Shown one piece after another: positions 1 to 62,065 of a stretch of 64,000 nucleotides of DNA. Within the stretch, counting starts at the first letter, position 1; each line of letters opens with the position of its first letter. The notes beneath the pieces were generated by a model. That model did no database searches. It saw only the letters and a program-made list of their open reading frames with translations, and was not told the origin of the DNA. The DNA comes from a virus (Duplodnaviria; Heunggongvirae; Uroviricota; Caudoviricetes), in IMG/VR virus record IMGVR_UViG_2832442593_000001, positions 88,020-152,019 of that record. One strand, 5' to 3'. The position numbers and the translations under genes are program-made.

Positions 1-759
1 GGGGTTCAGACAAAATACGTTGAAGTCCTTATGCAGATAAGGAAGCATCGGAAGCAGGTATTTCAGCCCCAGACTCATGGACTCAGTCCTATACATCTGT
101 GCGATAGAGGAGAAATACATCCTCACATACCTGAAACCGCTCTGCTCCGCTTTCGTAGACTCGCGTCGTGTAATCTCACCCCTGCGAAACAGGTCTTGGT
201 TAAACAACCACTCGCCGCGGTCATTCTGCCAGATGAAGTCTCTCTCTCGGAACGTCCGCAGCATTCCCTGAACAACTGGCGCGGTCAGCTGGAACACTTT
301 TGACAAATAGTTCACGATGTCCGGCGGATACACGTCAGCCGCGATCATCAGGTGCTTGTCAGTAGTAGTCAGGAGCATCATCAGCTTCTGCGCCTCGGTT
401 GGCGTGACGTCATAATAGCTCCCGCCTTCGAGCGGGACGCGCAGCCAGACGAAAGAGCCATAGGCCGGAGTGGCTGTTGAAACATCTCGCTTATAAGGCT
501 TCGCGGCTGGATTGGCTCCGATATCTCTAATGCGTGCTTCAAAGAAGTCCGGGTCGAGATAACGGATATCCTTTGGCTCAAGTTTCACCTTGGGGTTGTA
601 GTACCGCAGTACCGAGGTCGGAATATAAGCCCTCTGTCCATTGCCTTCCAGCGTGAAGGGAACAACGGCGGCGAACTCATGTAAATCAGCCCCGGCGTTG
701 GCTATGTCACGCAGGGTCAGCTCGGCCAACTGCGTTTTTTCTGGCTGGGATTTACCCAT
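1..759 (-). CDS. Hypothetical protein directly downstream of iteron array (possible replication-associated module); 3' end runs off window
   Basis: ATG at 759 with GGGAAG RBS. Translated codon by codon to position 1 with no stop. Absent from supplied ORF track because it has no in-window stop. No family recognised. Confidence 0.45.
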   Translation of the reverse strand, partial: MGKSQPEKTQLAELTLRDIANAGADLHEFAAVVPFTLEGNGQRAYIPTSVLRYYNPKVKLEPKDIRYLDPDFFEARIRDIGANPAAKPYKRDVSTATPAYGSFVWLRVPLEGGSYYDVTPTEAQKLMMLLTTTDKHLMIAADVYPPDIVNYLSKVFQLTAPVVQGMLRTFRERDFIWQNDRGEWLFNQDLFRRGEITRRESTKAEQSGFRYVRMYFSSIAQMYRTESMSLGLKYLLPMLPYLHKDFNVFCLNP

Positions 760-768
760 GTTGCTTCC

Positions 769-895
769 CGTCCTTCCAAATCGAACTCGCGTCCTTCCAA
801 ATCAAACCCGCCGTCCTTCCAAATCAAACTTATCGTCCTTCCAAATCAAACTTATCGTCCTTCCAAATCAAACTCGTCGTCCTTCCAAATCAAAC
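769..895. repeat. Six direct 18-bp iterons CGTCCTTCCAAATC(A/G)AAC at 21-22 bp periodicity (candidate origin iterons)
   Basis: Copies start at 769, 790, 812, 834, 856 and 878, i.e. one per helical turn, immediately upstream of the minus-strand gene starting at 759. Confidence 0.8.
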
Positions 896-897
896 CC

Positions 898-953
898 TAA
901 TCATAAATACACTAATCATAAATACATAATCAAAATACTTAATCATAAATACA
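898..953. repeat. AT-rich repeats TAATCATAAATACA (3 copies + 1 degenerate), DUE-like element adjacent to iterons
   Basis: Direct repeats seen at 898, 913 and 940. Confidence 0.6.
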
Positions 954-1056
954 TAGGCTAAGCTGGGCAGATTTTGAAAATGCCAGCCAGAGAAATGGAG
1001 AAATGGAATCACGCGGAATGAGGCTCACTCAGAATGAGGCTTACTCAAGAGGAGCG

Positions 1057-1437
1057 TCACGCTTCGTCTGAACGATTGGTCGGTATATAAATGCGCGGGG
1101 TAGAGAACTGACATTGGCTGTGTCGGCGAATCAGATGTGCTTCTTCAAGTTCCTTAAATATCTGCAGCGCTTTCTTCTCTCCACAAGAGATGTCGTTCAT
1201 AACATCTTTGAGAGAGTAATAGATGAATGGCTCGCCATCTTCGTCAATCCATTCTGGCCGGCTTTTTGATAGCTGCATTCGGTAGAGCATGAGAGAATAC
1301 AGGATCTTCCCAGCCGGAGAGACAGACTTGAGGTCAGGAGTTACGGGGATAGGGATGAAATCGAATCCGCTACGGCCATCGTAGCTGCGGAACTTTGGGT
1401 TCTTCTATGTCGTGTGGATAGCTGGTCGTTTTGCCAT
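1057..1437 (-). CDS. RepA_N-family replication initiator N-terminal domain homologue with in-frame TAG at 1405-1407 (codon 11); either TAG-suppressed/recoded or a pseudogene (alternative internal start at 1290)
   Basis: Strong RBS GGAGGAGG + ATG at 1437. Translation MAKRPAIHTT*KNPKF...PFIYYSLKDVMNDISCGEKKALQIFKELEEAHLIRR aligns with the 18718 RepA_N protein (YVYFSIDSVMESIGCAKAKAVKLMDTLEDWGLIRR). Confidence 0.5.
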
Positions 1438-2539
1438 CTGAATACCTCCTCCGCGGGGTAATTGGATTTTTTTTGCTTCTATTAACTACTATACAAAAAA
1501 GGCGTTTTTGGGACGCGGAGTTAAAGAAAAAGATGCATAAAGATTGAGAATTCTTTTGTGCATGTTGCTGAATGAAAAATAGCCAGCTGAAGTAGACTCT
1601 TCTGGCTGGCTTAGACCTATGCAGCAGTGCTTAGGTAGTAATACTGAAATAGATAAAGCCGACCATTAGAGACCTTGGCCGGCTGTATTTATGATTGGAT
1701 ACGCCCCTGGGATAGAGCAGGTATGGCGAGGTACGTCAATCATTGAAGAACCATTTTCGTTCTGGCGGCAGAATTGAGCTGTAATCGATTTTGACATGCG
1801 GATGGGAAATTATACCACGAGAATACAAAAAGCCAGTACAGGGCATTCTGAGGCGAATACAGGGCATTGTAGGCAATATGTGGAAATGCATGGAAACTAT
1901 AGGGGTGGGTTTTAGAGATCGCGGCGGCTAATTTATATAGCAGAGAACAATCATAGTAGAGCAAGAGTGTGTAGTGCTACATAGTGCTATAGGCAGTATT
2001 CCCTTCTGGCGGGAGATAAGGAGATGATAAGTTAGATACAGGATTGCATGGCAGCTGTAGACCTGCGTGACAGATGCATGATGGAGCTGCAGTAGAGCTT
2101 CCGTAGAGCTTGTGGCTGGCTATACTCGAGCTGACGGTTACAGCAGATTATAGGAATGCACCTTTTTCGAGTGTTCGGGAAAAGAGAGATGGCGAAAACT
2201 CGGGAACAGCGCACGAAATTGAGGAAACGGGGATTAAAGAGGGGAAAAGGGAGGGGGAGGAGAGCGAAAGTTCGGGGAAAAAGGGGAAAAATATGGGGTA
2301 GAGTGAGATGAGGCAACTACCCTGCCTAAAAATAGGAAAAGAACTGAAAAAGTGTAAAATATGCCCCCTTTGATAGAAAAGAGGCATTTACACCGCTGAA
2401 AAGTGCCGAAACGCTGTTTTATAGTATACTCGAAAAGTCGGTTTTTGAGGCAGGCTGATTTTTTGAGGTGTCTTGACACCTATCTTTACGCCTGAAGTTG
2501 GATATATGAACAGTCACTCATATGTTATTTTCTTAACAT

Positions 2540-3470
2540 AGTGTTAGTGTATCCTGTCTCTGTCGATCGGCAGGACAGAGGGCACGACAGGGGCACGCGG
2601 TGCTGTCTGGGCGCGGTATATGCAGGGCGTGACAGAGGGCGAAAATTTCAAAAAATCGGCGCGCAGCACGACGGGAAAAATCTTTTTTGCGCGTTTTTTC
2701 TGATTTTTTCAAAAAACTTATCCGCGCTTAAAACCTGTATTTTCGCCTGTTTTCGCCTGTTTTGCGAACCCCTACGCGCGCGTGCGTTTTCATTATCTTT
2801 GAAAAAATTGCCCCCCAAATTTTTTTTGAAAAAGGGGGTTGACACTGTACGCACAGAGTGCTATACTGTGAGCACAGTCAAGGAACGGCACCCCGCCGGA
2901 CGCCTTGACAGGGACGGCGCTCACCGTGTAGGGCGCGGGGCGCGCCCCCTATAGCGTGAAGTCCGGACGGCGTCCGGCGTGAAGTTTGACAAGTGAACAG
3001 CGACTTCTCGGCTTGTACCGCTTTCCCTCGATAGAGGGCGGGCGGGTTTCGAGTGCACCGCTTTTCCCTCGATAGAGGGCGGGCGGGCGTTATGCTTGAC
3101 AAGCTGAGAAGAACAGCTGTGAAATACCGCTTTCCGGTCGTGCATAACGGAATTGCACGACTTTCCGCAAGCGCGTTGCGCTTGCGGGCGGGAAAGTGCT
3201 TGCGTTCTGCATATGCGGTTCAATCGTGACAGGTGCACCGCGCAGAGTAGACAAGAACGGGCTTAGCCCCCGCAAGCAAGCTACGTTTAGCGTGTCCGTG
3301 AAAACACGCACCAAAACCGCGCAAGCGGTGGCGGGGTTTGCGGTTATCCAAAACCGCGCAGGCAGTACATAACAGGTTTACCCCCGGGGGGTCCCCTTCA
3401 ATTGACCCCCCGGTGCCAATGCCGCAAGGCAAGTACATATTCACGCAAGGACTTTACATACTGGAGGTTT
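2540..3470 (+). promoter_or_regulatory. Early control region with several TTGACA boxes, GC palindromes and a duplicated ~30-bp element (3010-3040 / 3058-3090: CCGCTTTCCCTCGATAGAGGGCGGGCGGG)
   Basis: No credible ORF. TTGACA at 2839, 2905, 2984 and 3096. Palindromes GGGCGCGGGGCGCGCCCC (2930) and CCCCCGGGGGG (3385). Divergent gene orientation either side. Confidence 0.5.
2839..2867 (+). promoter_or_regulatory. Consensus sigma-A type promoter TTGACA-17-TATACT
   Basis: Perfect -35, 17-nt spacer and near-consensus -10; first plus-strand gene lies downstream. Confidence 0.6.
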
Positions 3471-3474
3471 TATT

Positions 3475-4206
3475 ATGACTATGGAAAACATTAAGAACGC
3501 TGTCAAGGCGTACAACGACAACCGCGACACCGCAACCGCAACCGTAAGCGCAAAGGCGTTTGCAAGCATTGATGAATCGTGCAAGGATATCAGCAAGCAG
3601 AACCGCAAGTCTGCTCTGTCTGCTCTGGTTGCTTCCGGCAACCGTTCCGACGTTCTCACCGCGTTCGTAATGGGGTACACTTACAACCGTGTATCCGTCA
3701 AGATTGACAAGGACACCGGCAAGGCGGTTGTCGCTGAGACGCCCACCGAATTGCAATGGAAGCACGCAAACAAGGCATACGCCGACGCTCACGACGGTGC
3801 AAGCCTTGCGGACTCTGTCGGCTTTAACGCCCTTGCCGACGGCTTTTTTGACCACCTGTTCAAGGGTCACGTCCGTCTTCAGGGGCGCGGTGGCAAGTCT
3901 GCCGTGCTCGTAAGCAAGACGAAAGACGGCGTTATCCGTGACACCCTCACGCCGGACTTTGAAGCAAACGACGCAATCAGCGCAACCAAGGCAATGAAAA
4001 TGCTGGCTGACCTGTACACGGCACTGTTGCCGGAAGATATCCGCGTAAAGCCGTGCAAGTGCGATCTGATCCGCCTGCACGACGCGGTTATCACTCCGCG
4101 CGGTGGCAAACAGCTTAAGTCGTCCTCTGACACTCTGTACAAGCAGTTCTTTATGGGCGTTCGCGTCCGTATCACTGGCAACGCATACGAGGTTTACGAG
4201 AAGTAA
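3475..4206 (+). CDS. Hypothetical protein (first gene after early promoters, GC-rich island)
   Basis: ORF track; GGAGG RBS 9 nt upstream. The antisense 3454-4371 ORF is judged a GC artefact. Confidence 0.6.
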   Translation: MTMENIKNAVKAYNDNRDTATATVSAKAFASIDESCKDISKQNRKSALSALVASGNRSDVLTAFVMGYTYNRVSVKIDKDTGKAVVAETPTELQWKHANKAYADAHDGASLADSVGFNALADGFFDHLFKGHVRLQGRGGKSAVLVSKTKDGVIRDTLTPDFEANDAISATKAMKMLADLYTALLPEDIRVKPCKCDLIRLHDAVITPRGGKQLKSSSDTLYKQFFMGVRVRITGNAYEVYEK

Positions 4207-4312
4207 CCGATAGGGCGGTGCAAACCGCCCATGCCCGCAACAGTCCAACCTCCACGCGGTGCGGGTGGATAACCAACCAATGGACTGAAAACAACGCAAA
4301 GGAAGTGCAATT

Positions 4313-4849
4313 ATGAGCTTTGAAAACTGGGAAAGAGGAACCCGCAACGCAAGCGGGGCAAAAGTCCGCACTTACACAAGTGACCTACCTCGACTTCGTA
4401 TGAGCACACCGAGATCTGGGTTTGTGCCTTTTCAGTACGAAAAAGCCTACGGCGTAAAGAATGCTGTAGGCTTTCGCATGGCGGAAAAGTGCACGCAGGC
4501 AAAGATTCCGGCATGGTCGCGCAAGAACGATTTTGCCGCAGTCCACGCGGCAACCGGTCGCAAACTACCGGAGAACGTAGCCGCGGCATTGTTCGTAGCA
4601 ATCGCAATGCCTACGAGCAAACGTGCCGTCCGCAACCGCCGCCACGCAATAAACGTGTTACGTGATTTCTGCGCAGGCGAAAACCACCGCGCAACGCAAG
4701 CCGCAATGATCGCGTTCAGTCGCGATTACGCAACCGTGAAGGTTTGCGGCGAAAACGCAGCAACGCCTGCAACCGTAGCAATCCTGGTTGACGGTCTGCG
4801 TCGCGCTGGCTATGCAATCGTAAAGCCGGCGCGTCCGGCATCTTTCTAA
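4313..4849 (+). CDS. Hypothetical protein
   Basis: ORF track; AGGAAG RBS. Confidence 0.55.
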   Translation: MSFENWERGTRNASGAKVRTYTSDLPRLRMSTPRSGFVPFQYEKAYGVKNAVGFRMAEKCTQAKIPAWSRKNDFAAVHAATGRKLPENVAAALFVAIAMPTSKRAVRNRRHAINVLRDFCAGENHRATQAAMIAFSRDYATVKVCGENAATPATVAILVDGLRRAGYAIVKPARPASF

Positions 4850-4948
4850 TCCGAAAGTATACCTTTTTACTCTGCGATAAGAGCAAAATAATCGCAATAC
4901 CATAGGGAAAGTGCACCCTTTTTACATCAATCACCGCCGCGTAAAAAA

Positions 4949-4977
4949 TTGACCTTTTCCTAAGTTCATGATAAAAT
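4949..4977 (+). promoter_or_regulatory. Promoter TTGACC-17-TAAAAT
   Basis: Upstream of the RHH gene at 5008. Confidence 0.5.
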
Positions 4978-5007
4978 GAGCCTATACATAACATAGGCGG
5001 TGAAATA

Positions 5008-5202
5008 ATGAATAAGAATCAATATGATAGTGATTTTGTAAAAAGAAACTACGATAGGGTTTCATTCCAAGTTCCCAAAGGAGGAAAAGATATACTCAAG
5101 AAAGAATGTGACATACGAGGGTTTTCTGGAATGAACGCCCTTATTACCAACGCTATATTGGAAGCATATGGGATAGATCTCCGCAAGAAAACCGAAAAGT
5201 AA
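5008..5202 (+). CDS. Ribbon-helix-helix (Arc/CopG-like) DNA-binding protein
   Basis: RVSFQVPKGGKDILKKECDIRGFSGMNALITNAILEAY resembles an RHH beta-strand plus helices. Paralogue of the next gene. Confidence 0.55.
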   Translation: MNKNQYDSDFVKRNYDRVSFQVPKGGKDILKKECDIRGFSGMNALITNAILEAYGIDLRKKTEK

Positions 5203-5206
5203 ACAA

Positions 5207-5238
5207 GCCCCGGAACACTGTCGTTCCGGGGCTTTTCC
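5207..5238 (+). terminator. Rho-independent terminator
   Basis: GCCCCGGAACACTGTCGTTCCGGGGC hairpin followed by TTTTCC. Confidence 0.7.
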
Positions 5239-5259
5239 TTGCTCAAAGGAGGGAATTAT

Positions 5260-5502
5260 ATGTCAGAACAAACGATAGTGGACTACGATGCACTCGCAGC
5301 TCTGTGTATTGCTGAAATCGAGAAAGCAAAAGCTACTCCTCGCAGCAAATATGACAAAATTACTTTAAGTCTACCCAAAGGGAGTAAAGACTATCTTAAA
5401 ACACAAGCCGCTATTCGTGGCAAAAAAAGTGTAACAGAGTTAGTAACTGACGCAATCGAAAGTTACTGCGACGTAACATTGAAAAAAACCGACCGGGAAT
5501 AA
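5260..5502 (+). CDS. Ribbon-helix-helix DNA-binding protein (paralogue of 5008)
   Basis: ITLSLPKGSKDYLKTQAAIRGKKSVTELVTDAIESY; AAGGAGGG RBS. Start moved to the ATG at 5260. Confidence 0.55.
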   Translation: MSEQTIVDYDALAALCIAEIEKAKATPRSKYDKITLSLPKGSKDYLKTQAAIRGKKSVTELVTDAIESYCDVTLKKTDRE

Positions 5503-5520
5503 ACTCGGTCGGTTTTTATT
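5488..5520. terminator. Bidirectional rho-independent terminator between convergent genes
   Basis: ACCGACCG...CGGTCGGT stem followed by a T-run. Confidence 0.65.
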
Positions 5521-5995
5521 AGCAATCTTTCCATTCAAAATCGTAAACAGAGTTCTTTTCGAGATAATCAGGCTTAGGAAGTTCCATGTTAATATGTTTC
5601 TCGAAAGTCAAGAGATATTTTTTGATAGAAAAATCTCTCCCGGTTAAGAATAAATTCGCTTGGCTCCGCAAGAAAAGTTCCGCAGGACCTTTATGCATAC
5701 GCTCAGCTTGTTTGAGTTTTGCAACTCCTGTGATTGTTTTGTCGTCGATTTGCTGATAAAAAATAATTTTCTGCAACCGCATGACATCACAATGCAAATA
5801 TTTAGACAATTCGACAAGATTGGGATATTTGATTGCTAATTTGAATACTTTTTCGGTGAAAGCGTCATCGTTTTCTACTTTGCAATTATCAAGAAATAAT
5901 TGTAAATAATTACGACTACTTTCGCTTTCACAAGCATTCAATTTTTGGTACACAATAAAATCTATCACATTGTCCAAATCTTCTTTTGTGTACAT
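5519..5995 (-). CDS. Hypothetical protein, low-GC moron on opposite strand
   Basis: ORF track; GAGGTG RBS on minus strand. About 35% GC against ~50% for neighbours. Confidence 0.6.
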   Translation of the reverse strand: MYTKEDLDNVIDFIVYQKLNACESESSRNYLQLFLDNCKVENDDAFTEKVFKLAIKYPNLVELSKYLHCDVMRLQKIIFYQQIDDKTITGVAKLKQAERMHKGPAELFLRSQANLFLTGRDFSIKKYLLTFEKHINMELPKPDYLEKNSVYDFEWKDC

Positions 5996-6102
5996 AATTT
6001 CACCTCGCTTTCTACCGCAATCATATCATAACAACCCAATAAATACAAGCACCCAATCCGGGTGCTTTTTTCATGCCCAAAAATAGAAAGGAAGTTTCAC
6101 CT

Positions 6103-6432
6103 ATGAAAACAGCAATCGCAATGCTCCTCGCAGCTCTCGCAACCACTTCGACCGCAACCGCACCGGTAGCAAACGCAAACGCAACCGAAACGAAAATAAA
6201 TCCGGTTGCCCTCGAATACGCAACCGAATACCGCACCACTACTGCGGAAGTAACCGGCATTGCATGGTATCCCACGCACACCACAAGCAATTTCGCAACG
6301 CCAGACGGTCACGAATGGGCAGTCTGTGACGAACTTAACCCGGAAGCGTCCTATCTGGTTGTATTCGACACAATGGGAACCGCAGACCTCACGGACGATG
6401 AGGTTATCGCAATGGTTCCGATTCAGAAGTAA
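6103..6432 (+). CDS. Hypothetical secreted protein (N-terminal signal peptide)
   Basis: MKTAIAMLLAALATTSTATA hydrophobic N-terminus. GAAAGGAAG RBS before the ATG at 6103. Confidence 0.55.
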   Translation: MKTAIAMLLAALATTSTATAPVANANATETKINPVALEYATEYRTTTAEVTGIAWYPTHTTSNFATPDGHEWAVCDELNPEASYLVVFDTMGTADLTDDEVIAMVPIQK

Positions 6433-6503
6433 ACCAACCCAAAACCGGCCGGGAACGAAAACAAAACCGACCGGAAACGAAAACAAAAAAGGAGTAAAAC
6501 AAA

Positions 6504-6827
6504 ATGAAAATTATCAACTGCACACCGCACGCAATCAACTTCCTGCGCGAGGACAATTCCGTTCTCGTAACCATCGAGCCGAGCGGCACGATTGCCCGCG
6601 CTTCCCAGACCCGCGAAAGGGTTTCCGAAGTAAACGAAATTCCGGTGAATCAGTGCTCGTATGGCGCTGTCACCGGTTTGCCTGATCCGCAGGACGGAAC
6701 AATTTATCTTGTGTCTGCGCTGACTGCGCAGGCATGCCGCAACCGTTCCGACGTTTTCATTGTGGACGACGCAGTCCGCAACGAATCCGGTCAGATTATC
6801 GGCTGTCGAGCAATCGCTCACATCTGA
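6504..6827 (+). CDS. Hypothetical protein
   Basis: ORF track; AAAGGAG RBS. Confidence 0.6.
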   Translation: MKIINCTPHAINFLREDNSVLVTIEPSGTIARASQTRERVSEVNEIPVNQCSYGAVTGLPDPQDGTIYLVSALTAQACRNRSDVFIVDDAVRNESGQIIGCRAIAHI

Positions 6828-6995
6828 TGATCAGCAATAAAAACGAAAGAGGGGATGCCTATGATTGCGGAGCACGGGAAAAAGCCTGTGCCCAACAATA
6901 GAAAAGGCCGAGCCTTTCGGGTCTTGCAATCTGCACCGCAGGGCGGAGAACAAGAAACCGAAAGGCAAGTAATTTGAAAATGATTCCTGCCGGAA

Positions 6996-7029
6996 GGTTC
7001 TCGAGGGTTCATCCTTAAAGCCCTCATCC
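6996..7029 (+). promoter_or_regulatory. Conserved hairpin motif GGTTCTCGAGGGTTCATCCTTAAAGCCCTC (copy 1)
   Basis: Second copy at 9060 carries compensatory stem changes (GAGGG/CCCTC versus GCGGG/CCCGC). Confidence 0.5.
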
Positions 7030-7077
7030 ACAATTCAAACCGAAACAATTTCTAATACAAGAGAGGAGCAAACCAAA

Positions 7078-7377
7078 ATGAAAGAGTTCAAACACGTTCA
7101 TTATTTCCCTGTCGATGAATATATGATGGGAATGGCACGCAACAGCGATCTCGTAAAACGAGGTCTATCACAGCAGACCGCAGCTGCAATCTTCGCGGTC
7201 AGTTACGCGGAAGGATTGCTCGACGATGCCAACGAATACCATTGGCAGGCTCGAGCGTTCAATGATCTCGAAGCGGAAGAAACCGCTATCGAGTACGAGC
7301 AGCTCGCGGAAATGTACCGCAATTATGCTCGGAAAAACGGCGCAGGCTACATGCTGGAAGGGAGTAAATCGAAATGA
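7078..7377 (+). CDS. Hypothetical protein
   Basis: ORF track; GAGAGGAG RBS. Confidence 0.6.
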   Translation: MKEFKHVHYFPVDEYMMGMARNSDLVKRGLSQQTAAAIFAVSYAEGLLDDANEYHWQARAFNDLEAEETAIEYEQLAEMYRNYARKNGAGYMLEGSKSK

Positions 7378-7571
7378 AAACAACCGCAACCACACCGCGC
7401 AAGTGGCGTAACGTCTACCTCACCCACAACGAATGGGATAAACTCCGTCCCGCAATCAAATCGGCCGCGATCAGTTACAGCGCAAGCGGCTGTTTCGAGG
7501 GAATCTATCTCGAAGTATACGTGAACAAAACAGAAGCAAACCAGATTGAAAACGATCTGGAAACACTCTGA
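7374..7571 (+). CDS. Hypothetical protein
   Basis: ORF track; ATGA overlap with the upstream gene. Confidence 0.5.
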   Translation: MKTTATTPRKWRNVYLTHNEWDKLRPAIKSAAISYSASGCFEGIYLEVYVNKTEANQIENDLETL

Positions 7572-7599
7572 AACAGAACTGGAACGGAGGTAAAACGAA

Positions 7600-7863
7600 A
7601 TGAAAATCGAAATGCTCTGGAATATGGATGACGTTCGTTTCATGTGTATCCGCTACGATTATTGCAGCGGAATGGACAGTGACGAATACGAGCGCCTGCT
7701 CCATTACATCCGCGATCATGAATGCACTGCGGAAGAAATCGAATATGTAGCCGCATGGATTGCCGACTACAGCGATTTCGAAGGTTATACAAGCGAGGAA
7801 GCCATCCTTTCGGTTGCATACTCGTTGCTTAACAAATGCGTTAAGCACATCCCTACAATCTAA
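7600..7863 (+). CDS. Hypothetical protein
   Basis: ORF track; GGAGG RBS. Confidence 0.55.
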   Translation: MKIEMLWNMDDVRFMCIRYDYCSGMDSDEYERLLHYIRDHECTAEEIEYVAAWIADYSDFEGYTSEEAILSVAYSLLNKCVKHIPTI

Positions 7864-7937
7864 TGCAATGCCAGTAGCACCCGCAAAAGGGTGCATTTTT
7901 TATACCCAAAAATCAGAGTAACGGAAAGGAAATAATC

Positions 7938-8147
7938 ATGAAACACTACTTTTCTACCGCAATGTTTGCAGTGCTCGCTATCATGGCAACTGTTGCTACG
8001 GTTGCAACCGGCGAGGATAACTTCCTCGGAACGGTTGTATTCGGAACGTTCGCAATCGGCGATTTCTGGAATACTACGAAGCATTTGTACCGCCGATACA
8101 AGGCGGAAACAAATTACCACGGCAAACACAGCCGCCGCGCAGCCTGA
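7938..8147 (+). CDS. Small hydrophobic (membrane) protein
   Basis: ORF track; AVLAIMATVATVATG hydrophobic stretch. Confidence 0.5.
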   Translation: MKHYFSTAMFAVLAIMATVATVATGEDNFLGTVVFGTFAIGDFWNTTKHLYRRYKAETNYHGKHSRRAA

Positions 8148-11588: not shown

Positions 11589-12260
11589 ATGAAAACAGAA
11601 TTTGACGTAAGTTTCGAGAAAAACGGAGTTTGTCAAGCAAGAATTGTTGTTGCCAAGAATAAGGATTTCGCCGAGCGTTGGTTCCGTATGATCGAACCAG
11701 AGGCGGTCGTACTCGGAATTAGTGAGAACTATGAGTACAAACCCGGGAAGCCGGTTGAAGAAGTCCCCTACGAGTGGAACGGCATCGTGTTCGATGATGT
11801 TTTCGATGATAAATACAGCAGCGAACGAATCCTGTATTTTGATGTTCCTTTGGAATATCTCGGAGAGGATTACTTCGATGAAGAAGACAGCGCAAAAGCG
11901 GTCGGCGCGACAATTAGTATCGCATTTAATCCAGATTATCCAAACTGGATTGAATCTCGATTTGAAATTTCTCCGACTGACGCAAACGGCAGTGACTTCG
12001 ATTGGCTGCAGTACGACATGGATCGCGACCAGTATGAAGAACTTATGAATCTGGCAAGTGAAGCATTCGACCGTTGCATCAATGTAGGCTATTCCTATCG
12101 TGATGATGATGGGGCCACCAGATACGACGAAACACAGTTCGATCTTCCGAATATAAACGGAGGATACGATGAGCTCGAACTTCTTAACCTCATCGTAAAT
12201 TTCTTCAAGGAAAACGAGGACATCAATCTTCCCTCGGTAACCTACATTGAGGAGGCATAA
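11589..12260 (+). CDS. Hypothetical acidic protein
   Basis: ORF track; AAGGAGGAAAG RBS. The antisense ORF 11553-12263 is rejected. Confidence 0.6.
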   Translation: MKTEFDVSFEKNGVCQARIVVAKNKDFAERWFRMIEPEAVVLGISENYEYKPGKPVEEVPYEWNGIVFDDVFDDKYSSERILYFDVPLEYLGEDYFDEEDSAKAVGATISIAFNPDYPNWIESRFEISPTDANGSDFDWLQYDMDRDQYEELMNLASEAFDRCINVGYSYRDDDGATRYDETQFDLPNINGGYDELELLNLIVNFFKENEDINLPSVTYIEEA

Positions 12261-12263
12261 CAA

Positions 12264-12596
12264 ATGGACAACACATTAAAACTCCCTCGTTGGAACATCG
12301 AAGAGATGTGCGGCTACAAGCCGTTCACTACCTTCTGGCAGGACTTTAGCATCGCCGACAATTTTGGTATCGATGCGGTTTGCGACACTTACAACCGCGC
12401 CTTTCAGGAATGGAAAACCGATTATAAGTACCTGACCGAGCTGGTCATGGTGCTCAACTGGAAGATCTGGCAGCACTACGAACACAATGAACCGCTCGCC
12501 AGACTGTATAACACTCTCTGGGAGCGTGCCGCTCAGTATGCACAGGAAAACCTCAAGGGTGACGAACTGACCTATTACTTCGTCACAACAGACTAA
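12264..12596 (+). CDS. Hypothetical protein
   Basis: ORF track; GAGGAGG RBS. Confidence 0.6.
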   Translation: MDNTLKLPRWNIEEMCGYKPFTTFWQDFSIADNFGIDAVCDTYNRAFQEWKTDYKYLTELVMVLNWKIWQHYEHNEPLARLYNTLWERAAQYAQENLKGDELTYYFVTTD

Positions 12597-18221: not shown

Positions 18222-18623
18222 ATGAACGACAGAGACATTCGCCGCGGCGACATTTTTTACATCAAGAACGACGACAACGCAGTAGGCTTCGAGCAGAAGA
18301 AAACCCGACCGGCCATCATCGTATCCAACAACGCCAACAATCGCGCTTCCGGTGTGGTAGAGATCGTGTATCTGACCACTTCGCAGAAGCACCGTCCGCT
18401 TCCGACCCACATTCGAGTTCGCGGTTACGTTCCGTCCATCGCTCTCTGTGAGCAGGTTGTGACGGTCGATGTGAGCCGCCTGATGGAGCGAATCGGTTCC
18501 TGCAGCTACGATGAAATGGAAGCGGTCAATTGCGGACTGGCGGTTTCGCTCGGCTTAAAGAGCGTAAATAGTTACTCATATCAGCAGGTTAGAAGTGAAA
18601 AGCCGTGGTTATTTGCCAAATAA
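18222..18623 (+). CDS. MazF/PemK-family endoribonuclease toxin
   Basis: RGDIFYI...KTRPAIIVSNN...VEIVYLTTS...ALCEQVVTVDVSRL matches the PemK/MazF fold signature. AAGGAGAA RBS. Confidence 0.65.
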   Translation: MNDRDIRRGDIFYIKNDDNAVGFEQKKTRPAIIVSNNANNRASGVVEIVYLTTSQKHRPLPTHIRVRGYVPSIALCEQVVTVDVSRLMERIGSCSYDEMEAVNCGLAVSLGLKSVNSYSYQQVRSEKPWLFAK

Positions 18624-30437: not shown

Positions 30438-31106
30438 ATGAAAACTTACACGGAAGCAGAATTGAATGAAATTTTAAGAAATCATAAACATTGGATTCTG
30501 AAGAATATAGATGGTTGGAAAGAGATGAGAGCAGACTTGCGCGGAGCAAGCCTGTGTGGAGCAGACTTGCGCGGAGCAGACTTGCGCGGAGCAAACCTGT
30601 GTGGAGCAGACTTGCGCGGAGCAGACTTGCGCGGAGCAAACCTGCGCGAAGTGAAACTGTGCGGAGCAAACCTGTGCATAGCAGACCTGCGCAGAGCAGA
30701 CCTGTGCGAAGCGGACCTGTACGGAGCGAACCTGTACGGAGCAGACCTGTGCGGAGCAAAAAATATACCTTTTATTCCGATGACTTGTCCAGATATAGGA
30801 ACTTTTGTCTCATGGAAAAAGGCAAACGGACACATTGTTAAGTTGGAGATTCCAGAGGATGCCCGTCGAAGTTCCGCAACGGGAAGAAAGTGCCGATGCG
30901 ATAAAGCGAAAGTGATAGAGATTCAGGAATTAGATGGTTCACCATCTGAATTAACGGAAGTCGCAAGTGGATATGACCGCAATTTTGTTTACCGTGTAGG
31001 CGAAATTGCGGAAGAGCCTAAATACGATGAAGATCGTTGGAATGAATGTGCGCCGGGTATTCATTTTTTCATCAATCGTCAGGAAGCAGTGGATTACAGT
31101 GGTTAA
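30438..31106 (+). CDS. Pentapeptide-repeat protein
   Basis: ADLRGASLCGADLRGADLRGANLCGADLRGADLRGANL... tandem A(D/N)LxG repeats. Confidence 0.8.
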   Translation: MKTYTEAELNEILRNHKHWILKNIDGWKEMRADLRGASLCGADLRGADLRGANLCGADLRGADLRGANLREVKLCGANLCIADLRRADLCEADLYGANLYGADLCGAKNIPFIPMTCPDIGTFVSWKKANGHIVKLEIPEDARRSSATGRKCRCDKAKVIEIQELDGSPSELTEVASGYDRNFVYRVGEIAEEPKYDEDRWNECAPGIHFFINRQEAVDYSG

Positions 31107-35143: not shown

Positions 35144-35259
35144 CCCGGTGTAGCTCAATCGGATAGAGCGCGTAATATGTGAGCTGATAAGTTCGCTGAC
35201 AGCAAATTTCTTTTAGATTTGAAATCTCGAGGTTGTCGGTTCGAATCCGGCCTCCGGGC
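35144..35259 (+). ncRNA. tRNA-like RNA with acceptor, D arm and T arm intact but anticodon arm replaced by ~64-nt insert containing CGCTGACAGCAA motif
   Basis: Acceptor CCCGGTG/CTCCGGG, D GCTC-AATCGGATA-GAGC, T GTCGG-TTCGAAT-CCGGC. No complementary anticodon stem. Confidence 0.5.
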
Positions 35260-50721: not shown

Positions 50722-52053
50722 TTGAACGTAAACGACATTAAAAGCGTAGAGGGAGAGGCTGGAGTTATTGCAACATTGATCCAGCATCCAACTTACTATT
50801 TTTACGTTGAAGAGTTAAAGCCGGAGCATTTCACCGATCCGCAGAACCAGATAATTTATCTGGCGTTGAGTGAGCTTGCTAAAAGGGGTATAGAGAAGAT
50901 TGATGCTCTGAATGTCTTGAAGGTATTGGGAACAAAAAAAGCGACAAAACAGGCGGCTCAAAATCTCACTGTCGCATCAATCAACGAGATGATTGATCTC
51001 AGTCTGGTTGTTGCTCGCAATACGCCCGAGGAATATAAGTTGTTTGCCGATGATGTTCTGAACAAGGCTTTTCGACGTGGCGTCTATCAAAAATTGCAGA
51101 AATGTGAGCGGCTCTGCTTGACGGACGATGGAGGGGATCTCGGACAAAAGATTTATGCCGAGATTGACGAAACCGTTCTGAACTACAATCCTCGAAACGA
51201 TTTGCCTCTTTTCGGAGATATTGTCGATAAAATCTGGAAGGGTATTAAGGCGCGGCAGCGCGGCGATGCAAATATTATTGAGTTCCCGTTCCCAGAATTA
51301 AATCAGTATGTAGTCATAGAACCTAACGAAGTTGTTTGTTTTGCTGCCGTGCAAAAAGCAGGAAAGAGCGCCATGCTACTGACATGCACCGTGGACATGC
51401 TCAAAAAAGGGAAGAGTGTTTTATATGTCGATTCGGAAATTTCCGATGAACAGTTCACCAAGCGTATTCTCTCTCATTTAACTGGTATTGAATACAAAGT
51501 TATACGAGATGGTTTGTATACGGAAGAGCAGGAAAAACTTATCGACGAACAAAGAGCGTGGCTCAAAACGCAGAAATTTATCCATGTTTACACTCCTGTG
51601 CTCGATGAAAACACTCTTTTACTCGCGGCAAAACGCGCAAAACACCTTATTGATGTCGATTGCTGCGTGCTGGATTACCTGAAGCCCGCCGGTGGCACGG
51701 AAGCCTTCACGGTCTACGCTGAGCTCGGGAATATCGCCGATTGTTTTAAGAATCGTGTTTGCGGCGATCTGGGAATCTGCGGACTGACGGCCGCACAGGC
51801 TACGAAGTACGGCCAAATTGCGGATTCTGCTCGCATTGGACGTTCTGTCAGTACGGTTGTTACTATCACCAACAAAACGAAAGATGAAATCCGTAACGAT
51901 GGTGAGATGTGCGGCAATAAAAAAATGCGCGTCGCTTATAACCGAAACGGGGCTCAAATGAACGACGATGAATACATTGATGTCGATTTCAAGGGTGATA
52001 TTCTGACTTATTGTCCAGCGAGAAAACAGCACGACCCATACGCACCATATTAA
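50722..52053 (+). CDS. dnaB: DnaB-like replicative DNA helicase
   Basis: DnaB N-terminal domain pattern. Walker A AAVQKAGKSAML; RecA-fold C-terminus. Confidence 0.75.
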   Translation: MNVNDIKSVEGEAGVIATLIQHPTYYFYVEELKPEHFTDPQNQIIYLALSELAKRGIEKIDALNVLKVLGTKKATKQAAQNLTVASINEMIDLSLVVARNTPEEYKLFADDVLNKAFRRGVYQKLQKCERLCLTDDGGDLGQKIYAEIDETVLNYNPRNDLPLFGDIVDKIWKGIKARQRGDANIIEFPFPELNQYVVIEPNEVVCFAAVQKAGKSAMLLTCTVDMLKKGKSVLYVDSEISDEQFTKRILSHLTGIEYKVIRDGLYTEEQEKLIDEQRAWLKTQKFIHVYTPVLDENTLLLAAKRAKHLIDVDCCVLDYLKPAGGTEAFTVYAELGNIADCFKNRVCGDLGICGLTAAQATKYGQIADSARIGRSVSTVVTITNKTKDEIRNDGEMCGNKKMRVAYNRNGAQMNDDEYIDVDFKGDILTYCPARKQHDPYAPY

Positions 52054-52068
52054 AGGTAAGGAGTAATC

Positions 52069-53058
52069 ATGGAAATCAGAGATGTGGTAGAACAAATTGA
52101 TATCGTGGACTACATCTCCCAGTACCTCGATGTAGAGAGGCGAAGCGAGAACGAATACGTTGCGCTGTGTCCCTTCCATGACGAGAATACACCATCCTTC
52201 ACGATTACGCGCTCCAAAGGGTTGTATTACTGCTTCGGCTGCGGAGCTCGCGGCGACGTTGCCGATTTCGAGGTGCTGTACAACCATGTTTCTTTGCGAG
52301 AAGCGGTCAAGCGACTCAAAGCCTACGCCGGAATCACAGAGGGTGTGTCACTACCGTCCACCCATCTGGCGGCTGTACAGGCTCTCAAGAAGTACGCGCC
52401 ACGAAAAGAACAGAAAAATGTGTGTGAGCCACACAAAATCCTAGGGGAAAATGTGATGGAACAGTACGAGTGGCGACCGGAGAAGTTCCAGTCTTGGCTC
52501 GATGAGGGTATCCCTCTCGACCAGATGAAGCGTTTCGGTTACCGGTATGACGCGCTGTCAAACCGCATCGTTCACCCGATTCGATTGCCCGACGGCCAGA
52601 TTTTCAGTATCTGCGGACGCACGCTCGACCCCGATTTTAAGGAGAAAAAACTCCGCAAGTACACCTATCTCGTAAAGCTCGGAGCACTCGATACGCTGTT
52701 CGGGCTTTACGAAAACCGCGAAGCAATCCTCCGGAAGAAAGAGGTCATCCTGTTTGAGGGTGCGAAGTCCGTTCTCAAGGCGGCGGGCTACGGTTTCGAT
52801 AACTGCTGTGCCGTGCTGACCTCACACATCAACCCTTACCAGACCAAGATTCTCCTGCAACTGGGCGTCCGTATTGTCATCGCATTTGACGAGGAGGTTG
52901 ACCCGCGGCAGGATGGAGAAATCAAAAAGCTGAAACGCTTTTGCAGGGTGGATTGGGTTCGTAACCGTGACAACCTGTTGGGCGAAAAGATGGCTCCCGT
53001 AGACAATGGAGCGGAAGTTTGGAATGAATTGTATCAGCGAAGGGAGCGGCTATCATAA
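52069..53058 (+). CDS. DNA primase (DnaG-like: CHC2 zinc finger + TOPRIM)
   Basis: CPFHDENTPSF...YYCFGCGARGDV zinc finger. TOPRIM EVILFEGAKSV. Confidence 0.8.
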   Translation: MEIRDVVEQIDIVDYISQYLDVERRSENEYVALCPFHDENTPSFTITRSKGLYYCFGCGARGDVADFEVLYNHVSLREAVKRLKAYAGITEGVSLPSTHLAAVQALKKYAPRKEQKNVCEPHKILGENVMEQYEWRPEKFQSWLDEGIPLDQMKRFGYRYDALSNRIVHPIRLPDGQIFSICGRTLDPDFKEKKLRKYTYLVKLGALDTLFGLYENREAILRKKEVILFEGAKSVLKAAGYGFDNCCAVLTSHINPYQTKILLQLGVRIVIAFDEEVDPRQDGEIKKLKRFCRVDWVRNRDNLLGEKMAPVDNGAEVWNELYQRRERLS

Positions 53059-56000
53059 TTTTTCAGAACTACCACAAACACACAACCTACAGTAACCCTC
53101 GCGTCAGCGACTCGGTCGTGACCTACGAGGATTACGCCAAGCGTGCCGTCGAGCTCGGACATTCCATTCTGTCCAGCTGCGAGCATGGATGGCAGGGGAG
53201 ATATATCGAGTGCTACGACCTCGCAAAACAGTACGGTCTGAAGTTTCTCTTCGCCGCTGAGGCTTACTGGGTCTGGGATCGTCATGAGGAAGACCGTTCC
53301 AATTGCCATATTTGGATTGGCGCGAAGAATGAAAACGGCCGCGAATGGATTAACGAGGTTCTCAGTCAGGCGAACGAGGATGGTTTCTACTACCAGCCGC
53401 GACTGGATGAAGAGCTTCTCGACCTGCTTCCGGCGGGCGACGTTTGGATTACAACTGCCTGTGTTGCCGGATGGAAGTATCTCGGCGAAGAAGAAGAGCG
53501 ACTCAAGGCTCTTTGGAAGAAGCTGTACGACAAACACGGCGACAACTTCATGTTTGAGGTGCAATACCACCTCTCTGAACGGCAGAAAGAGCTAAACCGT
53601 TACATTCTGAATCTGCGGAAAGAAATTCCCGCGCCGATTATCATGGGCTGCGACAGCCACTACATCGAGGGAAACGGCGCAGAACTCCGCTCCGACTTCC
53701 TCGTTTCTAAGGAAGACCGCAAGGCTTACGATGACGAGGAAGAATGGTTTATGGATTACCCGGATGGCGACACTGCCGTCCGACGCTTCCGCGAGCAGGG
53801 TGTCTTGACAGAAGCTGAGATCACGGAGGCAATCGACCGGACAAACTGTTTCCTCGAAGTAGAGGAGTACGAGTGCGATATTTTCGACGACAGCACTAAA
53901 CTGTTCTCCCTTCATCCGGAGTGGACGCAGGAGCAGAAAGATGCTGAGTATATGCGGCTTGTCCAGCAGGGCTGGGAAGCGTATAAGCCAGAGGTTGACC
54001 CGAGTCTGTATCCGGTGTATGAGCAGGCTATTAAAGAAGAAACCGATACTGTTAAGCAATGCAGAATGAGCGACTACTTCATTGATGACTATTACATCAT
54101 GAAGCGAGGGAAAGAGCTCGGCGGTCACTTGACTACTACTGGTCGTGGCAGTTGTGTTGGATTCTTTACAAACAAGCTGCTCGGCTTTACCGAGGTTGAC
54201 CGAATTGCAGCCAAAGTAAAGATGTACCCCGAACGCTTTATGACTGCAGAACGTATCCTCGAAACGCAGAGTATCCCCGATCTTGACCAGAACGTAGCGG
54301 AGCAGGATATCTTTGCGGAAGGCCAGGCTCAGGTCTGCGGCCGTGATCATGCAGTTCAGATGCTTGCTTACGGCACGCAAAAAGCGTCAGCTGCGTGGAA
54401 GATGTTTGCGAAGTCCCAGAGCATCGACTTTGCTACGGCGAATGAAGTGTCCGCCCAGATCAAGCGATATGAGAACAAGCTCCATACCGTTGATGAGGAA
54501 GAGAAGGACACCATCGACATCATGGACTACATCGACAAACGATTCCATGACGTATACCTTCGCTCGACCGAGTATCAGGGAATCATCACAAGCTGGTCAC
54601 CGGCACCGTGTGCGTTCCTGCTGTATCAGGGCAGTATCCGCCGCAAGATTGGACTTGTGAAGATCAAGGACAAGATTTGCTGTGCGATGGATGGCCATTG
54701 GGCGGAGAAGAATCACTTCCTGAAGAACGACCTGCTCCGCGTTGCTGTGGTTGACCTTATCAATCGAGGCTATCATCGTGCAGGATTGAAAGTTCCTACT
54801 GTGAACGAGCTTCTCGATATGTGCCCACCAGATGACCCGGTATGGGGTATCTATCGTAAAGGCTGTACGCTTGGTATCAATCAGGTCGAGCAGCCGGGAA
54901 CCGCCAGCCGAGTAGGCGTTTACGCGCCAACCAACATTTCCGAGCTTTGCGCGTTCATCGCCGCGATTCGCCCGGGTTTCAAGTCGATGTACAAGACCTT
55001 CGAGAGTAGACAGGATTTCTCGTATGACGTTAAACCGTTCGATGAGCTTCTTCGTACCGATGAGTTGCCGCAGTCGTTCTGTCTGTATCAGGAACAGCAG
55101 ATGGCGGCGCTGAACTTCGCCGGTTTTCCGATGAAGGAATGTTACGCGGCGGTCAAGAATATCGCCAAGAAGCGTAAGGAAAAAGTCCTCGCATATCGCG
55201 AACGATTCATCGACGGATTCTCTAAGAAGCTGATCGAGCAGGAGCATTTGGACGAAAAGACCGCCATTGAAAAGACCGACATGGTCTGGAAGATCATCGA
55301 AGATTCAGCCTCGTATAGCTTCAATGCCTGTGTGTCGGGCGATACAAAAATTAAACGTTCGTCTAAAGGACAGTCCCGGTTTGAACCTACAATTGAGGAA
55401 ATGTTCTTGATTAAGAACGATTTGGAGTATGCGAAACGAACAAATCACTACCATCTGCACAGTAAGTATCTAAAAACGTATGGCTGCGGTTTATCGGTAT
55501 TTGAAGATGGAAGAATTCATCAGAACAATATTGTAGATATCGCCTATGCCGGAGAGCGTCAGACATACCGAATCATGCTTGAGAATGGCGCTTACATTGA
55601 CTGCACAGACAATCATAAGTTCCCAACACCTTCCGGAGAGAAACAACTGAGGGATTTATCGGTCGGAGATATCCTGTACGTCATGGGTTCTTATGAAAAG
55701 AACACAAACAAGTACACCTTCACAAACGGCAATTACAAGTCGAACTTTCCAAACCCCGGGCAGATGGGTTTTCAGAAACACCCCGATGGCCCAAGCGTCG
55801 TTTACGAGAGAGTCCGAGCTGAGAAAAAGAAAGAAAGATGTGCATGCGAAGTATGTGGAAAACCTTATACTGACGACTATCGCTTTGAACTTCATCACAA
55901 AGACTTTGATCGCACACACAATACGGAAGATAACTACACTTGGTGTTGTGTGAGCTGTCATAAGAAGCTCCATTTCGCTCATGGAAGAAACGCTCGGTAC

Positions 56001-60982: not shown

Positions 60983-62065
60983 GAATGTAACATATAACAT
61001 CTTGCGGGGGCGTGTGTGGTAACACATACTGAAAAAATCGCCTAACTCGGTGAACCTGAAAAGGAATACCGAACTAAGTTCGTTGCTTAAAATTTTTATA
61101 GAAAGGAGGTTATAATATGCCAAATTATATCGAAAAACTGCCTGAAGATGCAGTTCAGGTAAAAAACGCTTTGTGTTGGGTAACCCCTGCCGGGAATCTT
61201 TATGGACAAGAAACACGAACATTATATAACAAAAAATTAGATAAAAAAATTCCGCACAAACATTATGGAGAGTTCTTCCAGTATAACACCACCGTGAATC
61301 GGAGAAATGGTTACGTTTATGCACCCATCAAATACATTAAATCAGATGGGACATACGAAATTCGACGTCGCAGGTTGCACATTGTGATTGCGGAAACATT
61401 GCTTCCGAACCCTAATAAATTTCCTATTGTTGGGCACAAAAACAACATCAAAACAGATATTAGGCTGAGTAATCTGTATTGGACGACAATCTCTGAGAAT
61501 ACAAAAAAAGCGTTCGACGATGGATTGGCCGTAAATGCAAAAGGTTATGATGATTCTCAATCTATCCCTGTCATAATGTTCAACACTTATACCAACGAAG
61601 AGATAGGAAGGTATGGAAGTGCCAGTGAAGCAGTGCGAGAAACAGGAATCCCTAAAAATACAGTTTTGCGCCAATGCCGGTATAAGAAACCTGTTCGTAA
61701 ACCATTCTACTTCCGATTCCAATCAGACCCGTCGGTTGAACCGCCTCAGATTGTTATCCAATACGACTATGAAACAGATCGTGAAATAGGAAGATATTTC
61801 AATGTATAGGAGGCAGCACGTCAAACAGGCGTGTATTCGAAGGTAGTAGACTACGAATGTAAATTAGGACATAAACCTGTCCGCAAGCCTAAAAATGGCA
61901 CATATTTTACGTTCTATCAATCATCAATCTAAAGGCTCTATAAAATTTTAAGCAACGATAAATGCGTGGAGGTCATCGAAATCCGATAAGGTAAAGTAGA
62001 GTAGCGCAAGCGAAAGAGCGAACTCGTATGAAAAATACGATGAAAATATGACCCAAATAAAAATG
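60983..62065 (+). other. Group I intron (~1083 nt) in nrdD with homing-endonuclease ORF looped out
   Basis: Exon 1 ends in U (…CCU). The intron ends in G (…AAAAAUG). Splicing restores the conserved TP-AENLCY motif. A 19-bp long-range pairing GTTGCTTAAAATTTTTATAG (61084) with CTATAAAATTTTAAGCAAC (61935) brackets the endonuclease ORF. Confidence 0.65.
61117..61932 (+). CDS. HNH homing endonuclease with NUMOD1-like repeats; contains in-frame TAG at 61807-61809 (read-through restores a second NUMOD repeat)
   Basis: HNH_3 motif HIVIAETLLPNPNKFPIVGHKNNIKTDIRLSNLYW. Repeat EIGRYGSASEAVRETGI...KKPVRKPFYFRFQS matches the post-TAG EIGRYFNV*EAARQTGV...HKPVRKPKNGTYFTFYQS. Confidence 0.7.

Follow-up and report, generated by a model that had tools for sequence, protein, structure and literature searches.

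A domain-only RepA_N gene with an in-frame TAG codon and an adjoining iteron array form a candidate replication origin in a large phage

Does an iteron array beside a stop-interrupted RepA_N gene in a phage genome represent a working replication origin, a broken plasmid replicon or a control site of another kind? This question is raised by the locus at positions 760 to 1437 of a 64,000-nt stretch of DNA (the window; positions 88,020 to 152,019 of the IMG/VR Caudoviricetes record IMGVR_UViG_2832442593_000001). In a preliminary description of this stretch, two RepA_N-type replicons were recognized, one of them "split" into an N-domain open reading frame (ORF) with a TAG codon, iterons and a separate ORF. 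Our analysis, based on sequence comparison, suggests with a probability of about 0.6 that the locus and the ORF downstream of it form a conserved bidirectional iteron-origin module, whose initiator would be licensed by amber suppression. The module lies where the rightward early/replication block and the leftward late block diverge in an SPbeta/phiCD211-like phage of about 100 to 175 kb of gut Firmicutes.

The interrupted gene, called repA_N-S here, lies on the minus strand at 1057..1437, from an ATG at 1437 to a TGA at 1059-1057. Read through a TAG at codon 11, it has 126 codons and encodes the winged-helix DNA-binding domain of RepA_N only. The product matched the Pfam family RepA_N (PF06970; score cut-off, 30 bits) with 54.3 bits (E value, 1.3e-14), and a direct phmmer search matched it to solved N-domains of staphylococcal RepA proteins (4PTA; E value, 1.2e-9). 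The second RepA_N gene of the window (18718..19686, plus strand) scored 75 bits against the same family (E value, 4.5e-21) and matched 4PQL at 5e-19; the phmmer matches for both proteins were 4PTA, 4PQL, 4PT7 and 5KBJ. The presence of two RepA_N-type initiator and repeat modules, as described previously, was therefore confirmed by the Pfam profile and by the matches to solved structures. The two RepA_N domains are 39% identical, and the proteins can be regarded as paralogues. Their C-terminal parts differ: the 322-aa product of the second gene is covered by the PHROG 7882 profile over residues 5 to 316, with its C-terminal domain in the same chain, and repA_N-S covers just the N-terminal third of that profile. 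The C-terminal host-specific domain of RepA_N initiators is lacking in the repA_N-S chain, which ends after 126 codons at a TGA conserved in relatives.

Next to repA_N-S, we found six in-phase 22-bp iterons (769..899; GTTTGATTTGGAAGGACG plus a 4-nt spacer in the minus-strand reading). Tandem Repeats Finder (TRF) gave a period of 22 bp, 5.8 copies and 91% matches for 769-895, and a repeat search placed the six copies at spacings of 21, 22, 22, 22 and 22 bp. When the 18-mer GTTTGATTTGGAAGGACG was counted with up to 3 mismatches, there were six matches, every one in this array, against 0.11 expected from shuffles. The array is directly abutted by four AT-rich repeats of 14 to 15 bp (TAATCATAAATACA; 897..955), a candidate DNA-unwinding element, with copies at 898, 913 and 940 and a degenerate fourth one (TRF period, 15; 4.0 copies; also recovered by motif count). 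Both TRF and the repeat search thus reproduced the iterons and AT-rich repeats of the preliminary description. In-phase direct repeats, an AT-rich repeated segment and an initiator gene 100 bp away make up the layout of an iteron-type theta origin. The AT-rich repeats and iterons are bracketed by an 18-nt inverted repeat, whose distal arm (978..995) is 89% complementary to a proximal arm (736..753) inside codons 3 to 8 of the downstream gene, hereafter the partner gene. The core of the distal arm (CTGGCTGG) is invariant among relatives; in the more distant relative L022, the equivalent position is occupied instead by an inverted iteron copy. Two copies of a 16-bp direct repeat (1009..1047; repeat search, TRF and alignment) lie nearby. 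This repeat is probably dispensable because it varies among relatives, with three copies in L002 and none in five others. The iteron copy number ranges from 2 to 6 among close, nearly identical relatives, as expected for tandem repeats.

The locus was then compared across lineages. Ten IMG/VR contigs of 13 to 175 kb carry it at 92 to 99% protein identity, an alignment of 11 sequences was used, and two further relatives, L022 and L020, have partner proteins 87% and 57% identical to that of the window clade, respectively. repA_N-S was found in the 10 contigs, in L022 and in L020, and in all of these the order of RepA_N-only gene, iterons with AT-rich DNA and partner gene was kept. The context of another relative, L021, was cut by the contig end and was uninformative. 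The window iterons (GTTTGATTTGGAAGGACG) are replaced in L022 by six copies of GTTTGATCTGTACCATCGA, with one inverted copy beyond the AT-rich repeats and with the right half of the unit exchanged. In L020, the whole unit is different (palindromic GGGGTAAAAAATTTTTACCCC), and its RepA_N is a third, diverged version. By sequence, each of the three lineages pairs different iterons with a diverged matching RepA_N. An identity profile of the window against L022 showed flanks at 85 to 93% and a diverged block that begins at the RepA_N start codon, takes in the iterons and reaches about 65 codons into the partner gene; over partner residues 1 to 65, the window clade and L022 share 66% identity, and over the remainder 92%. 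We read this pattern as RepA_N being the iteron binder, with the N terminus of the partner coupled to it. The coupling could reflect physical contact, or merely the boundaries of an exchanged cassette. No nucleotide similarity was found between window positions 1-8000 and GenBank phages.

The TAG of repA_N-S (1405..1407, minus strand) is located upstream of the RepA_N domain. It was invariant in 11 of the 11 aligned sequences, in which the neighbouring codons vary, and the L022 orthologue, 56% identical, has a TAG at the same place (T*KNP) with its own ribosome-binding site ahead. No ATG, GTG or TTG start codon was present between the TAG and Met50, which is already within the domain, so that a standard-code product would miss part of the fold. 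A Shine-Dalgarno sequence (GGAGGAGG; 1445..1452, minus strand), 7 nt upstream of the ATG at 1437, places translation initiation upstream of the TAG. Its AGGAGG core was invariant in all 11 aligned sequences, and its 5' bases varied (GGAGGAGG or AAAGGAGG). Still further upstream is an element unique in the window (TTTGTATAGTAGTTAATAGAAGC; 1475..1497, minus strand), which may be a promoter or an operator for repA_N-S. A 16-nt core within it (GTATAGTAGTTAATAG) is the same in every relative, L022 included, despite the diverged coding region downstream; a consensus scan found no sigma-70 promoter for the gene. When the gene was read through the TAG, pS (synonymous polymorphism) was 0.18 and pN (nonsynonymous polymorphism) was 0.025 among 11 relatives. 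This pN/pS ratio of 0.14 indicates that repA_N-S is under purifying selection.

A candidate decoder is encoded in the window itself. ARAGORN predicted a 94-nt tRNA with the anticodon CUA (amber suppressor; 24570..24663, plus strand), with a long variable arm and discriminator G73, and this gene matched the Rfam tRNA family with 50.3 bits. A tRNA-like fragment lies just 5' of it at 24505-24568. The suppressor gene is identical in six of eight relatives; in the other two (L076/L078, around 12224-12299), a different tRNA of 76 nt occupies this locus, and its CUA lies in an enlarged anticodon loop of 8 nt. Of the 85 genes predicted in the window, 57 end in TAA, 28 in TGA and none in TAG. In the loci of relatives, 3 of 84 long ORFs end in TAG, all of them the second RepA_N gene with a TGA back-up five codons on. 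In these cases (L076, L077 and L079, around 6964-6984), a 1-nt deletion makes the TAA of the gene into a TAG, and they are the sole TAG terminators seen in the clade. Another in-frame TAG (61804-61806) was present in a homing-endonuclease-like ORF with HNH_3 and NUMOD1 (61117-61932, plus strand); the Pfam NUMOD1 match spans this TAG, which aligns with a Ser of the preceding internal NUMOD1 repeat. An all-frame homology search for further in-frame TAG codons proved too noisy. The L022 terminase was rejected as a late-gene case because its interruption is an insertion and not a TAG codon: around 19240-19500, an intron-like insert of about 250 bp, lacking in L001, interrupts the large-terminase gene after "...NEISWS". 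The long arm, G73, G2-C71 and A3-U70 of the window suppressor are serine-like traits, and under the tRNA identity rules that we assume here they point to serine at TAG. The conserved TAG, the purifying selection, the CUA-anticodon tRNA and the avoidance of TAG terminators together indicate, at the sequence level, that the TAG at codon 11 is a feature and not a lesion. Some phages are reported to read a stop codon through a tRNA of their own and to have such codons in late-oriented genes (bioRxiv 10.1101/2021.08.26.457843; PMC9523058), and the window data fit this picture.

The genomic position of the locus was also examined. Apart from a few doubtful ones, the predicted genes from 3475 to 64000 are all on the plus strand. 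Leftward from 1437, at least 20 kb is on the opposite strand, with the partner gene, a Bro-N/ANT antirepressor, a YonO-like polymerase, YonJ, HU, YonG and terminase; from its gene content, the YonO-, YonJ-, HU-, YonG- and TerL-like series is recognizable as the late operon of SPbeta/phiCD211-like phages. To the left of the window, a 981-aa protein (L001, 12133-15078) with a weak Pfam RdRP match resembles a YonO-type single-subunit RNA polymerase. The cumulative GC skew of a 74-kb composite, made of 10 kb of L001 and the window, had its minimum at window position 952, inside the AT-rich repeats, with the skew at -0.039 on its left and +0.066 on its right. Six close relatives had their minimum about 105 to 210 bp upstream of the partner ATG; for L022, this distance was about 470 bp. 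This pattern is consistent with what a bidirectional origin looks like. Replisome genes are encoded at 50.7-57.2 kb, namely, those for a DnaB-like helicase (50722-52053), a primase (52069-53058) and a DnaE-type polymerase of 1365 aa (53118-57215). Residues 891 to 968, approximately, of the polymerase match HNH endonuclease PHROGs, possibly an inserted homing element or intein.

The partner gene (1..759, minus strand) starts with an ATG at 759, 10 bp past the last iteron, and runs beyond the window start, so that 253 codons of it were available here; in relatives, the protein has 356 aa. It belongs to PHROG 9501, the profile of which matched 27 of the 27 sampled family members, the partner included (best E value, 3.8e-35). 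An AlphaFold model from a 13-sequence alignment had two winged-helix domains, with a predicted local distance difference test (pLDDT) score of 74.5 overall and about 88 at residues 100 to 340; an earlier model from 4 sequences (pLDDT, 49) was not used. The partner had no match in Pfam, none to PHROG 7882, which spans the intact paralogue end to end, and none by BLASTP to the C-terminal half of that paralogue. These results, together with profile and fold searches, gave no support to the partner as a detached RepA_N C-domain. Of the proposed split replicon, the N-domain ORF with its TAG, the iterons and the separate ORF stand; the separate ORF is not the missing half of the initiator. A tandem winged-helix initiator of the Rep_3/RepE/Pi type was rejected as well, as similarity did not extend across both domains. 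An exhaustive profile search gave 414 partner relatives, most of about 300 aa and aligning from about position 93. The N-terminal extension of about 90 aa is clade-specific and absent in family members without RepA_N. One member is fused to a UvrD helicase, and another is found in a small Xis/Int element.

PHROG 9501 genes usually head the late operon of large SPbeta/phiCD211-like phages. The recurrent downstream neighbours of distant members are genes for a YonO-like RNA polymerase, a YonG-like protein and large terminase, usually after a long non-coding gap. In phiCD211 (NC_029048.2; L081, 948-3282), a homologue at 2419-3282 lies just after an annotated partition gene and a small ORF and is followed by HU, a YonJ-like exonuclease, YonG-like and TerL genes. 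Its gene neighbourhood hints at a role of PHROG 9501 in plasmid maintenance or replication.

The second replicon has a different organization. Its gene is free of in-frame TAG and conserved in the contigs of eight relatives, and its repeats (19058..19350), recovered by the repeat search and TRF, lie within the coding region and include a palindrome (ACCGGTTTGAAAATCAAACCGGT) and 15-bp repeats (TAATCAGACTAAGTA). The intact initiator with iterons in its coding region that had been noted at 18718-19686 was thereby verified. In classical RepA_N iterons, inverted half-sites converge on an A tract (PMC7145576), and the 19058-19350 array (ACCGGTTTGAAAATCAAACCGGT) fits this form. The iteron cores of the two replicons are related, as had been supposed: the 9-mer AAATCAAAC occurs 9 times in the 64 kb (0.97 expected), with 5 occurrences at 799-895 and 4 at 19130-19280, and is thus confined to the two arrays, and both arrays are followed on the plus strand by 15-bp TAATCA-type repeats (897-955 and 19311-19350). 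A gene for a PemK/MazF toxin, with no recognizable antitoxin partner identified, lies directly upstream of the second RepA_N gene (18222-18623). Downstream are a tyrosine recombinase gene (19993-20799; two tyrosine-recombinase-like genes were found in the window), a gene (22310-23233) for a protein that has an N-domain like that of MrpR, master repressor of SPbeta, and a gene for a sigma-70-family protein (23465-23986), followed by the tRNA cluster with the suppressor. The second RepA_N gene is thus in a block for lysogeny or maintenance that has no in-frame TAG. Two origins in one genome, as proposed in the preliminary description, are possible given the two modules with a shared half-site core. 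No skew or strand switch was found at 18.7-19.7 kb.

Based on these data, we propose the following model. The CUA-anticodon tRNA would decode codon 11, and the full-length RepA_N-only protein would be made solely when this tRNA is active. As the covariation suggests, the protein would bind the iterons through the shared GTTTGA(T) half-site and a lineage-specific half. By analogy with known iteron origins, this binding may open the adjoining AT-rich repeats. More speculatively, the partner, whose 65 N-terminal residues co-diverge with the initiator and iterons, might replace the missing RepA C-domain and link the complex to the DnaB-like helicase, primase and DnaE-type polymerase of the phage. 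Replication would then proceed bidirectionally, consistent with the skew data. The last iteron is so close to the partner start codon that iteron binding probably regulates the partner gene too. It can be speculated that the TAG silences this origin under the host code and that the TAG-free replicon at 18718-19686 serves, for example, prophage maintenance. In its strongest form, the genetic code would act as a replication licence in a temperate or plasmid-like large phage: the main bidirectional origin would fire only once the suppressor tRNA permits translation of the minimal RepA_N protein, which would form a two-chain initiator with the PHROG 9501 protein, and the TAG-free single-chain paralogue with its related iterons would keep the prophage under the host code. 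We put forward this last version as a tentative idea that may well turn out to be wrong.

Several observations weigh against an amber-licensed origin. The switch in skew falls together with that in coding strand and is therefore supporting, not independent, evidence; in addition, the iterons at 769-899 are C-rich and help fix the exact skew minimum. Semi-palindromes are the norm for RepA_N (PMC7145576), but this array consists of direct repeats in an intergenic region, with one shared half-site. For the partner, profile and fold searches gave generic winged-helix matches only (MarR/ArsR-like), and its fold likeness to the Pi and RepE initiators was weak (template modelling [TM] score, about 0.26 to 0.33; probability, 0.2 to 0.3). 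Among 46 distant IMG/VR loci of PHROG 9501, none had a RepA_N gene within 4 kb, and their context suits a function in late transcription or packaging no less than one in replication. In-frame TAG codons were documented in two genes only, repA_N-S and the ORF at 61117-61932, structural and lysis genes lying outside the sequence covered. Finally, the different short-arm tRNA in two relatives weakens the assignment of serine to TAG.

Alternatively, the repeats could be mainly a transcriptional operator, with the RepA_N-only protein repressing or activating the leftward late operon (partner, antirepressor, YonO-like polymerase and packaging genes) and PHROG 9501 acting as a late-gene regulator instead of a replication factor. 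The end of the last iteron 10 bp from the partner start codon, the position of the locus at the head of the late block and the MarR/ArsR-like fold of the partner would all suit an operator, as would the PHROG 9501 members without RepA_N that repeatedly lead YonO, YonG and terminase operons and are preceded by long non-coding gaps. A late-block gene with an in-frame TAG likewise suits the published late-gene recoding (bioRxiv 10.1101/2021.08.26.457843). However, the characterized RepA_N proteins described in PMC7145576 are replication initiators, and the AT-rich repeats, the iteron spacing of two helical turns and the skew minimum are features of an origin. Because iteron initiators commonly autoregulate too, an operator is also compatible with an origin. 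We consider a mainly transcriptional function unlikely.

The locus could also be a decaying captured plasmid replicon, in which RepA_N was broken by a nonsense mutation and truncated, the iterons are left over, and the phage uses its DnaE/DnaB module with another origin. Under the standard code, the ORF indeed stops after 10 codons, the protein is without any C-terminal domain, and the iteron copy number drifts in close relatives. However, the TAG is invariant in 12 sequences, including the 56%-identical orthologue, the ribosome-binding site and the upstream element are conserved, the phage has a suppressor tRNA gene and avoids TAG terminators, and the architecture holds, with iterons that change to match, even where the partner is 57% identical. 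The conservation of the TAG and of the ribosome-binding site and the pN/pS of 0.14 rule out that repA_N-S is a pseudogene, and decay of the replicon as a whole is very improbable.

Direct repeats close to where the late operon begins are common in packaging sites. A packaging-recognition site (pac/cos type) for terminase at the start of the late operon would suit the distant PHROG 9501 genes found immediately upstream of YonG-like and large-terminase genes, but here these genes are 7 to 8 kb downstream, the repeats covary with the adjacent RepA_N gene and not with packaging genes, and the same core motif recurs within the second RepA_N gene, so that we regard this function as hardly credible.

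The preliminary description had also suggested a phage-plasmid lifestyle or a captured plasmid origin. RepA_N is the annotated initiator of many temperate, integrating Streptococcus prophages, and RepA_N alone is therefore no sign of a phage-plasmid. A plasmid lifestyle is plausible in view of the MazF, tyrosine recombinase and MrpR-like genes that flank the second RepA_N gene and of the PHROG 9501 homologue beside the phiCD211 partition gene (PMC5786514). No partition gene was found in a non-exhaustive scan of 33 window proteins, and two scans of 185,579 species-representative genomes (GTDB) gave no relatives. Recent capture from a known plasmid was not supported: the best matches in PLSDB were only about 29% identical to the RepA_N protein, and the partner protein had no plasmid match at all.

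The module has likenesses to several known systems. Like the RepA_N theta replicons of Firmicutes plasmids (pSK41 and pTZ2162 RepA; 4PT7, 4PQL, 4PTA and 5KBJ), both window genes encode a homologous N-terminal winged-helix domain and have iteron arrays, and 18718-19686 has the classical layout with in-gene iterons whose half-sites converge on an A tract (PMC7145576). Unlike these replicons, repA_N-S encodes the N-domain alone (126 aa), its iterons lie between genes as direct repeats with no obvious dyad, and a separate unrelated protein follows; moreover, identity to plasmid RepA is about 29%, and the element here is a phage of at least 100 kb. The RepA/ori of the PLE phage satellites of Vibrio cholerae also combines a RepA_N-type initiator, non-coding iterons, a phage-associated element and phage-supplied machinery, but PLE RepA still carries a C-terminal domain in its own chain, is not gated by a stop codon and lacks a PHROG 9501 partner; its host is Gram negative (PMC7145576). 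The plasmidial siphophages of Clostridioides difficile related to phiCD211/phiCD5763 (PMC5786514) are of a similar genome size class and share the order of PHROG 9501, HU, YonJ-like exonuclease, YonG-like and TerL genes; in phiCD211, however, a partition gene, not a RepA_N gene with iterons, is upstream of the PHROG 9501 gene. The phiCD211 homologue is about 26% identical to a distant PHROG 9501 member (P0009) and was undetected with the window-clade partner as the query.

Phage P1 has two separately controlled origins, the plasmid oriR with RepA and iterons and the lytic oriL with RepL; its initiators are not related to each other, and the C1 repressor controls the lytic replicon. As in P1, one phage genome here would hold an origin in a maintenance context and another tied to the lytic programme. 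Unlike in P1, the initiators are paralogous, the proposed control is translational and the plasmid state is only putative. With recoded gut phages, the window shares a phage-encoded CUA-anticodon tRNA, avoidance of TAG terminators and a late-oriented block with an in-frame TAG in one of its genes, and code switching has been proposed to separate the lytic and lysogenic programmes (bioRxiv 10.1101/2021.08.26.457843; PMC9523058). Here, in contrast, the TAG is at codon 11 of a putative replication initiator with its own origin, and the tRNA has a long variable arm (type II), the suppressors of recoded phages being usually inferred to be of the glutamine type. The combination of a domain-only RepA_N initiator, a candidate intergenic origin and an unrelated partner gene is a variation on known RepA_N iteron replicons, set within the known phenomenon of suppressor-tRNA recoding in gut phages.

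Some other features of the window were recorded. The region of about 2 kb between the divergent blocks (1440-3470) has no convincing ORF, contains a purine-rich tract at about 2150-2300 and is 85 to 93% conserved against L022; a search of this gene-less region (1.4-3.5 kb) with Rfam gave no match at the gathering threshold. Rfam also found four tRNA-like genes that were missed by ARAGORN (35144-35259, 35907-36032, 37991-38059 and 38166-38252), two of which are unusually long (116 and 126 nt). Inside a predicted ORF of 222 aa, a 15-bp unit (GAGCAAACCTGCGCG) is repeated in tandem with 15.5 copies (30529-30760).

The idea of recoding as a switch between lysogenic and lytic growth has so far been supported mostly by evidence from structural and lysis genes. 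A conserved amber codon 11 in an origin-specific initiator would offer a simple test at the level of replication, which involves a single codon, a single tRNA and a single origin. In addition, the locus presents the RepA_N DNA-binding domain as a free-standing module with interchangeable iteron cassettes. Finally, it provides a first functional lead for the uncharacterized family PHROG 9501, in an SPbeta/phiCD211-like group that includes plasmidial phages of C. difficile.

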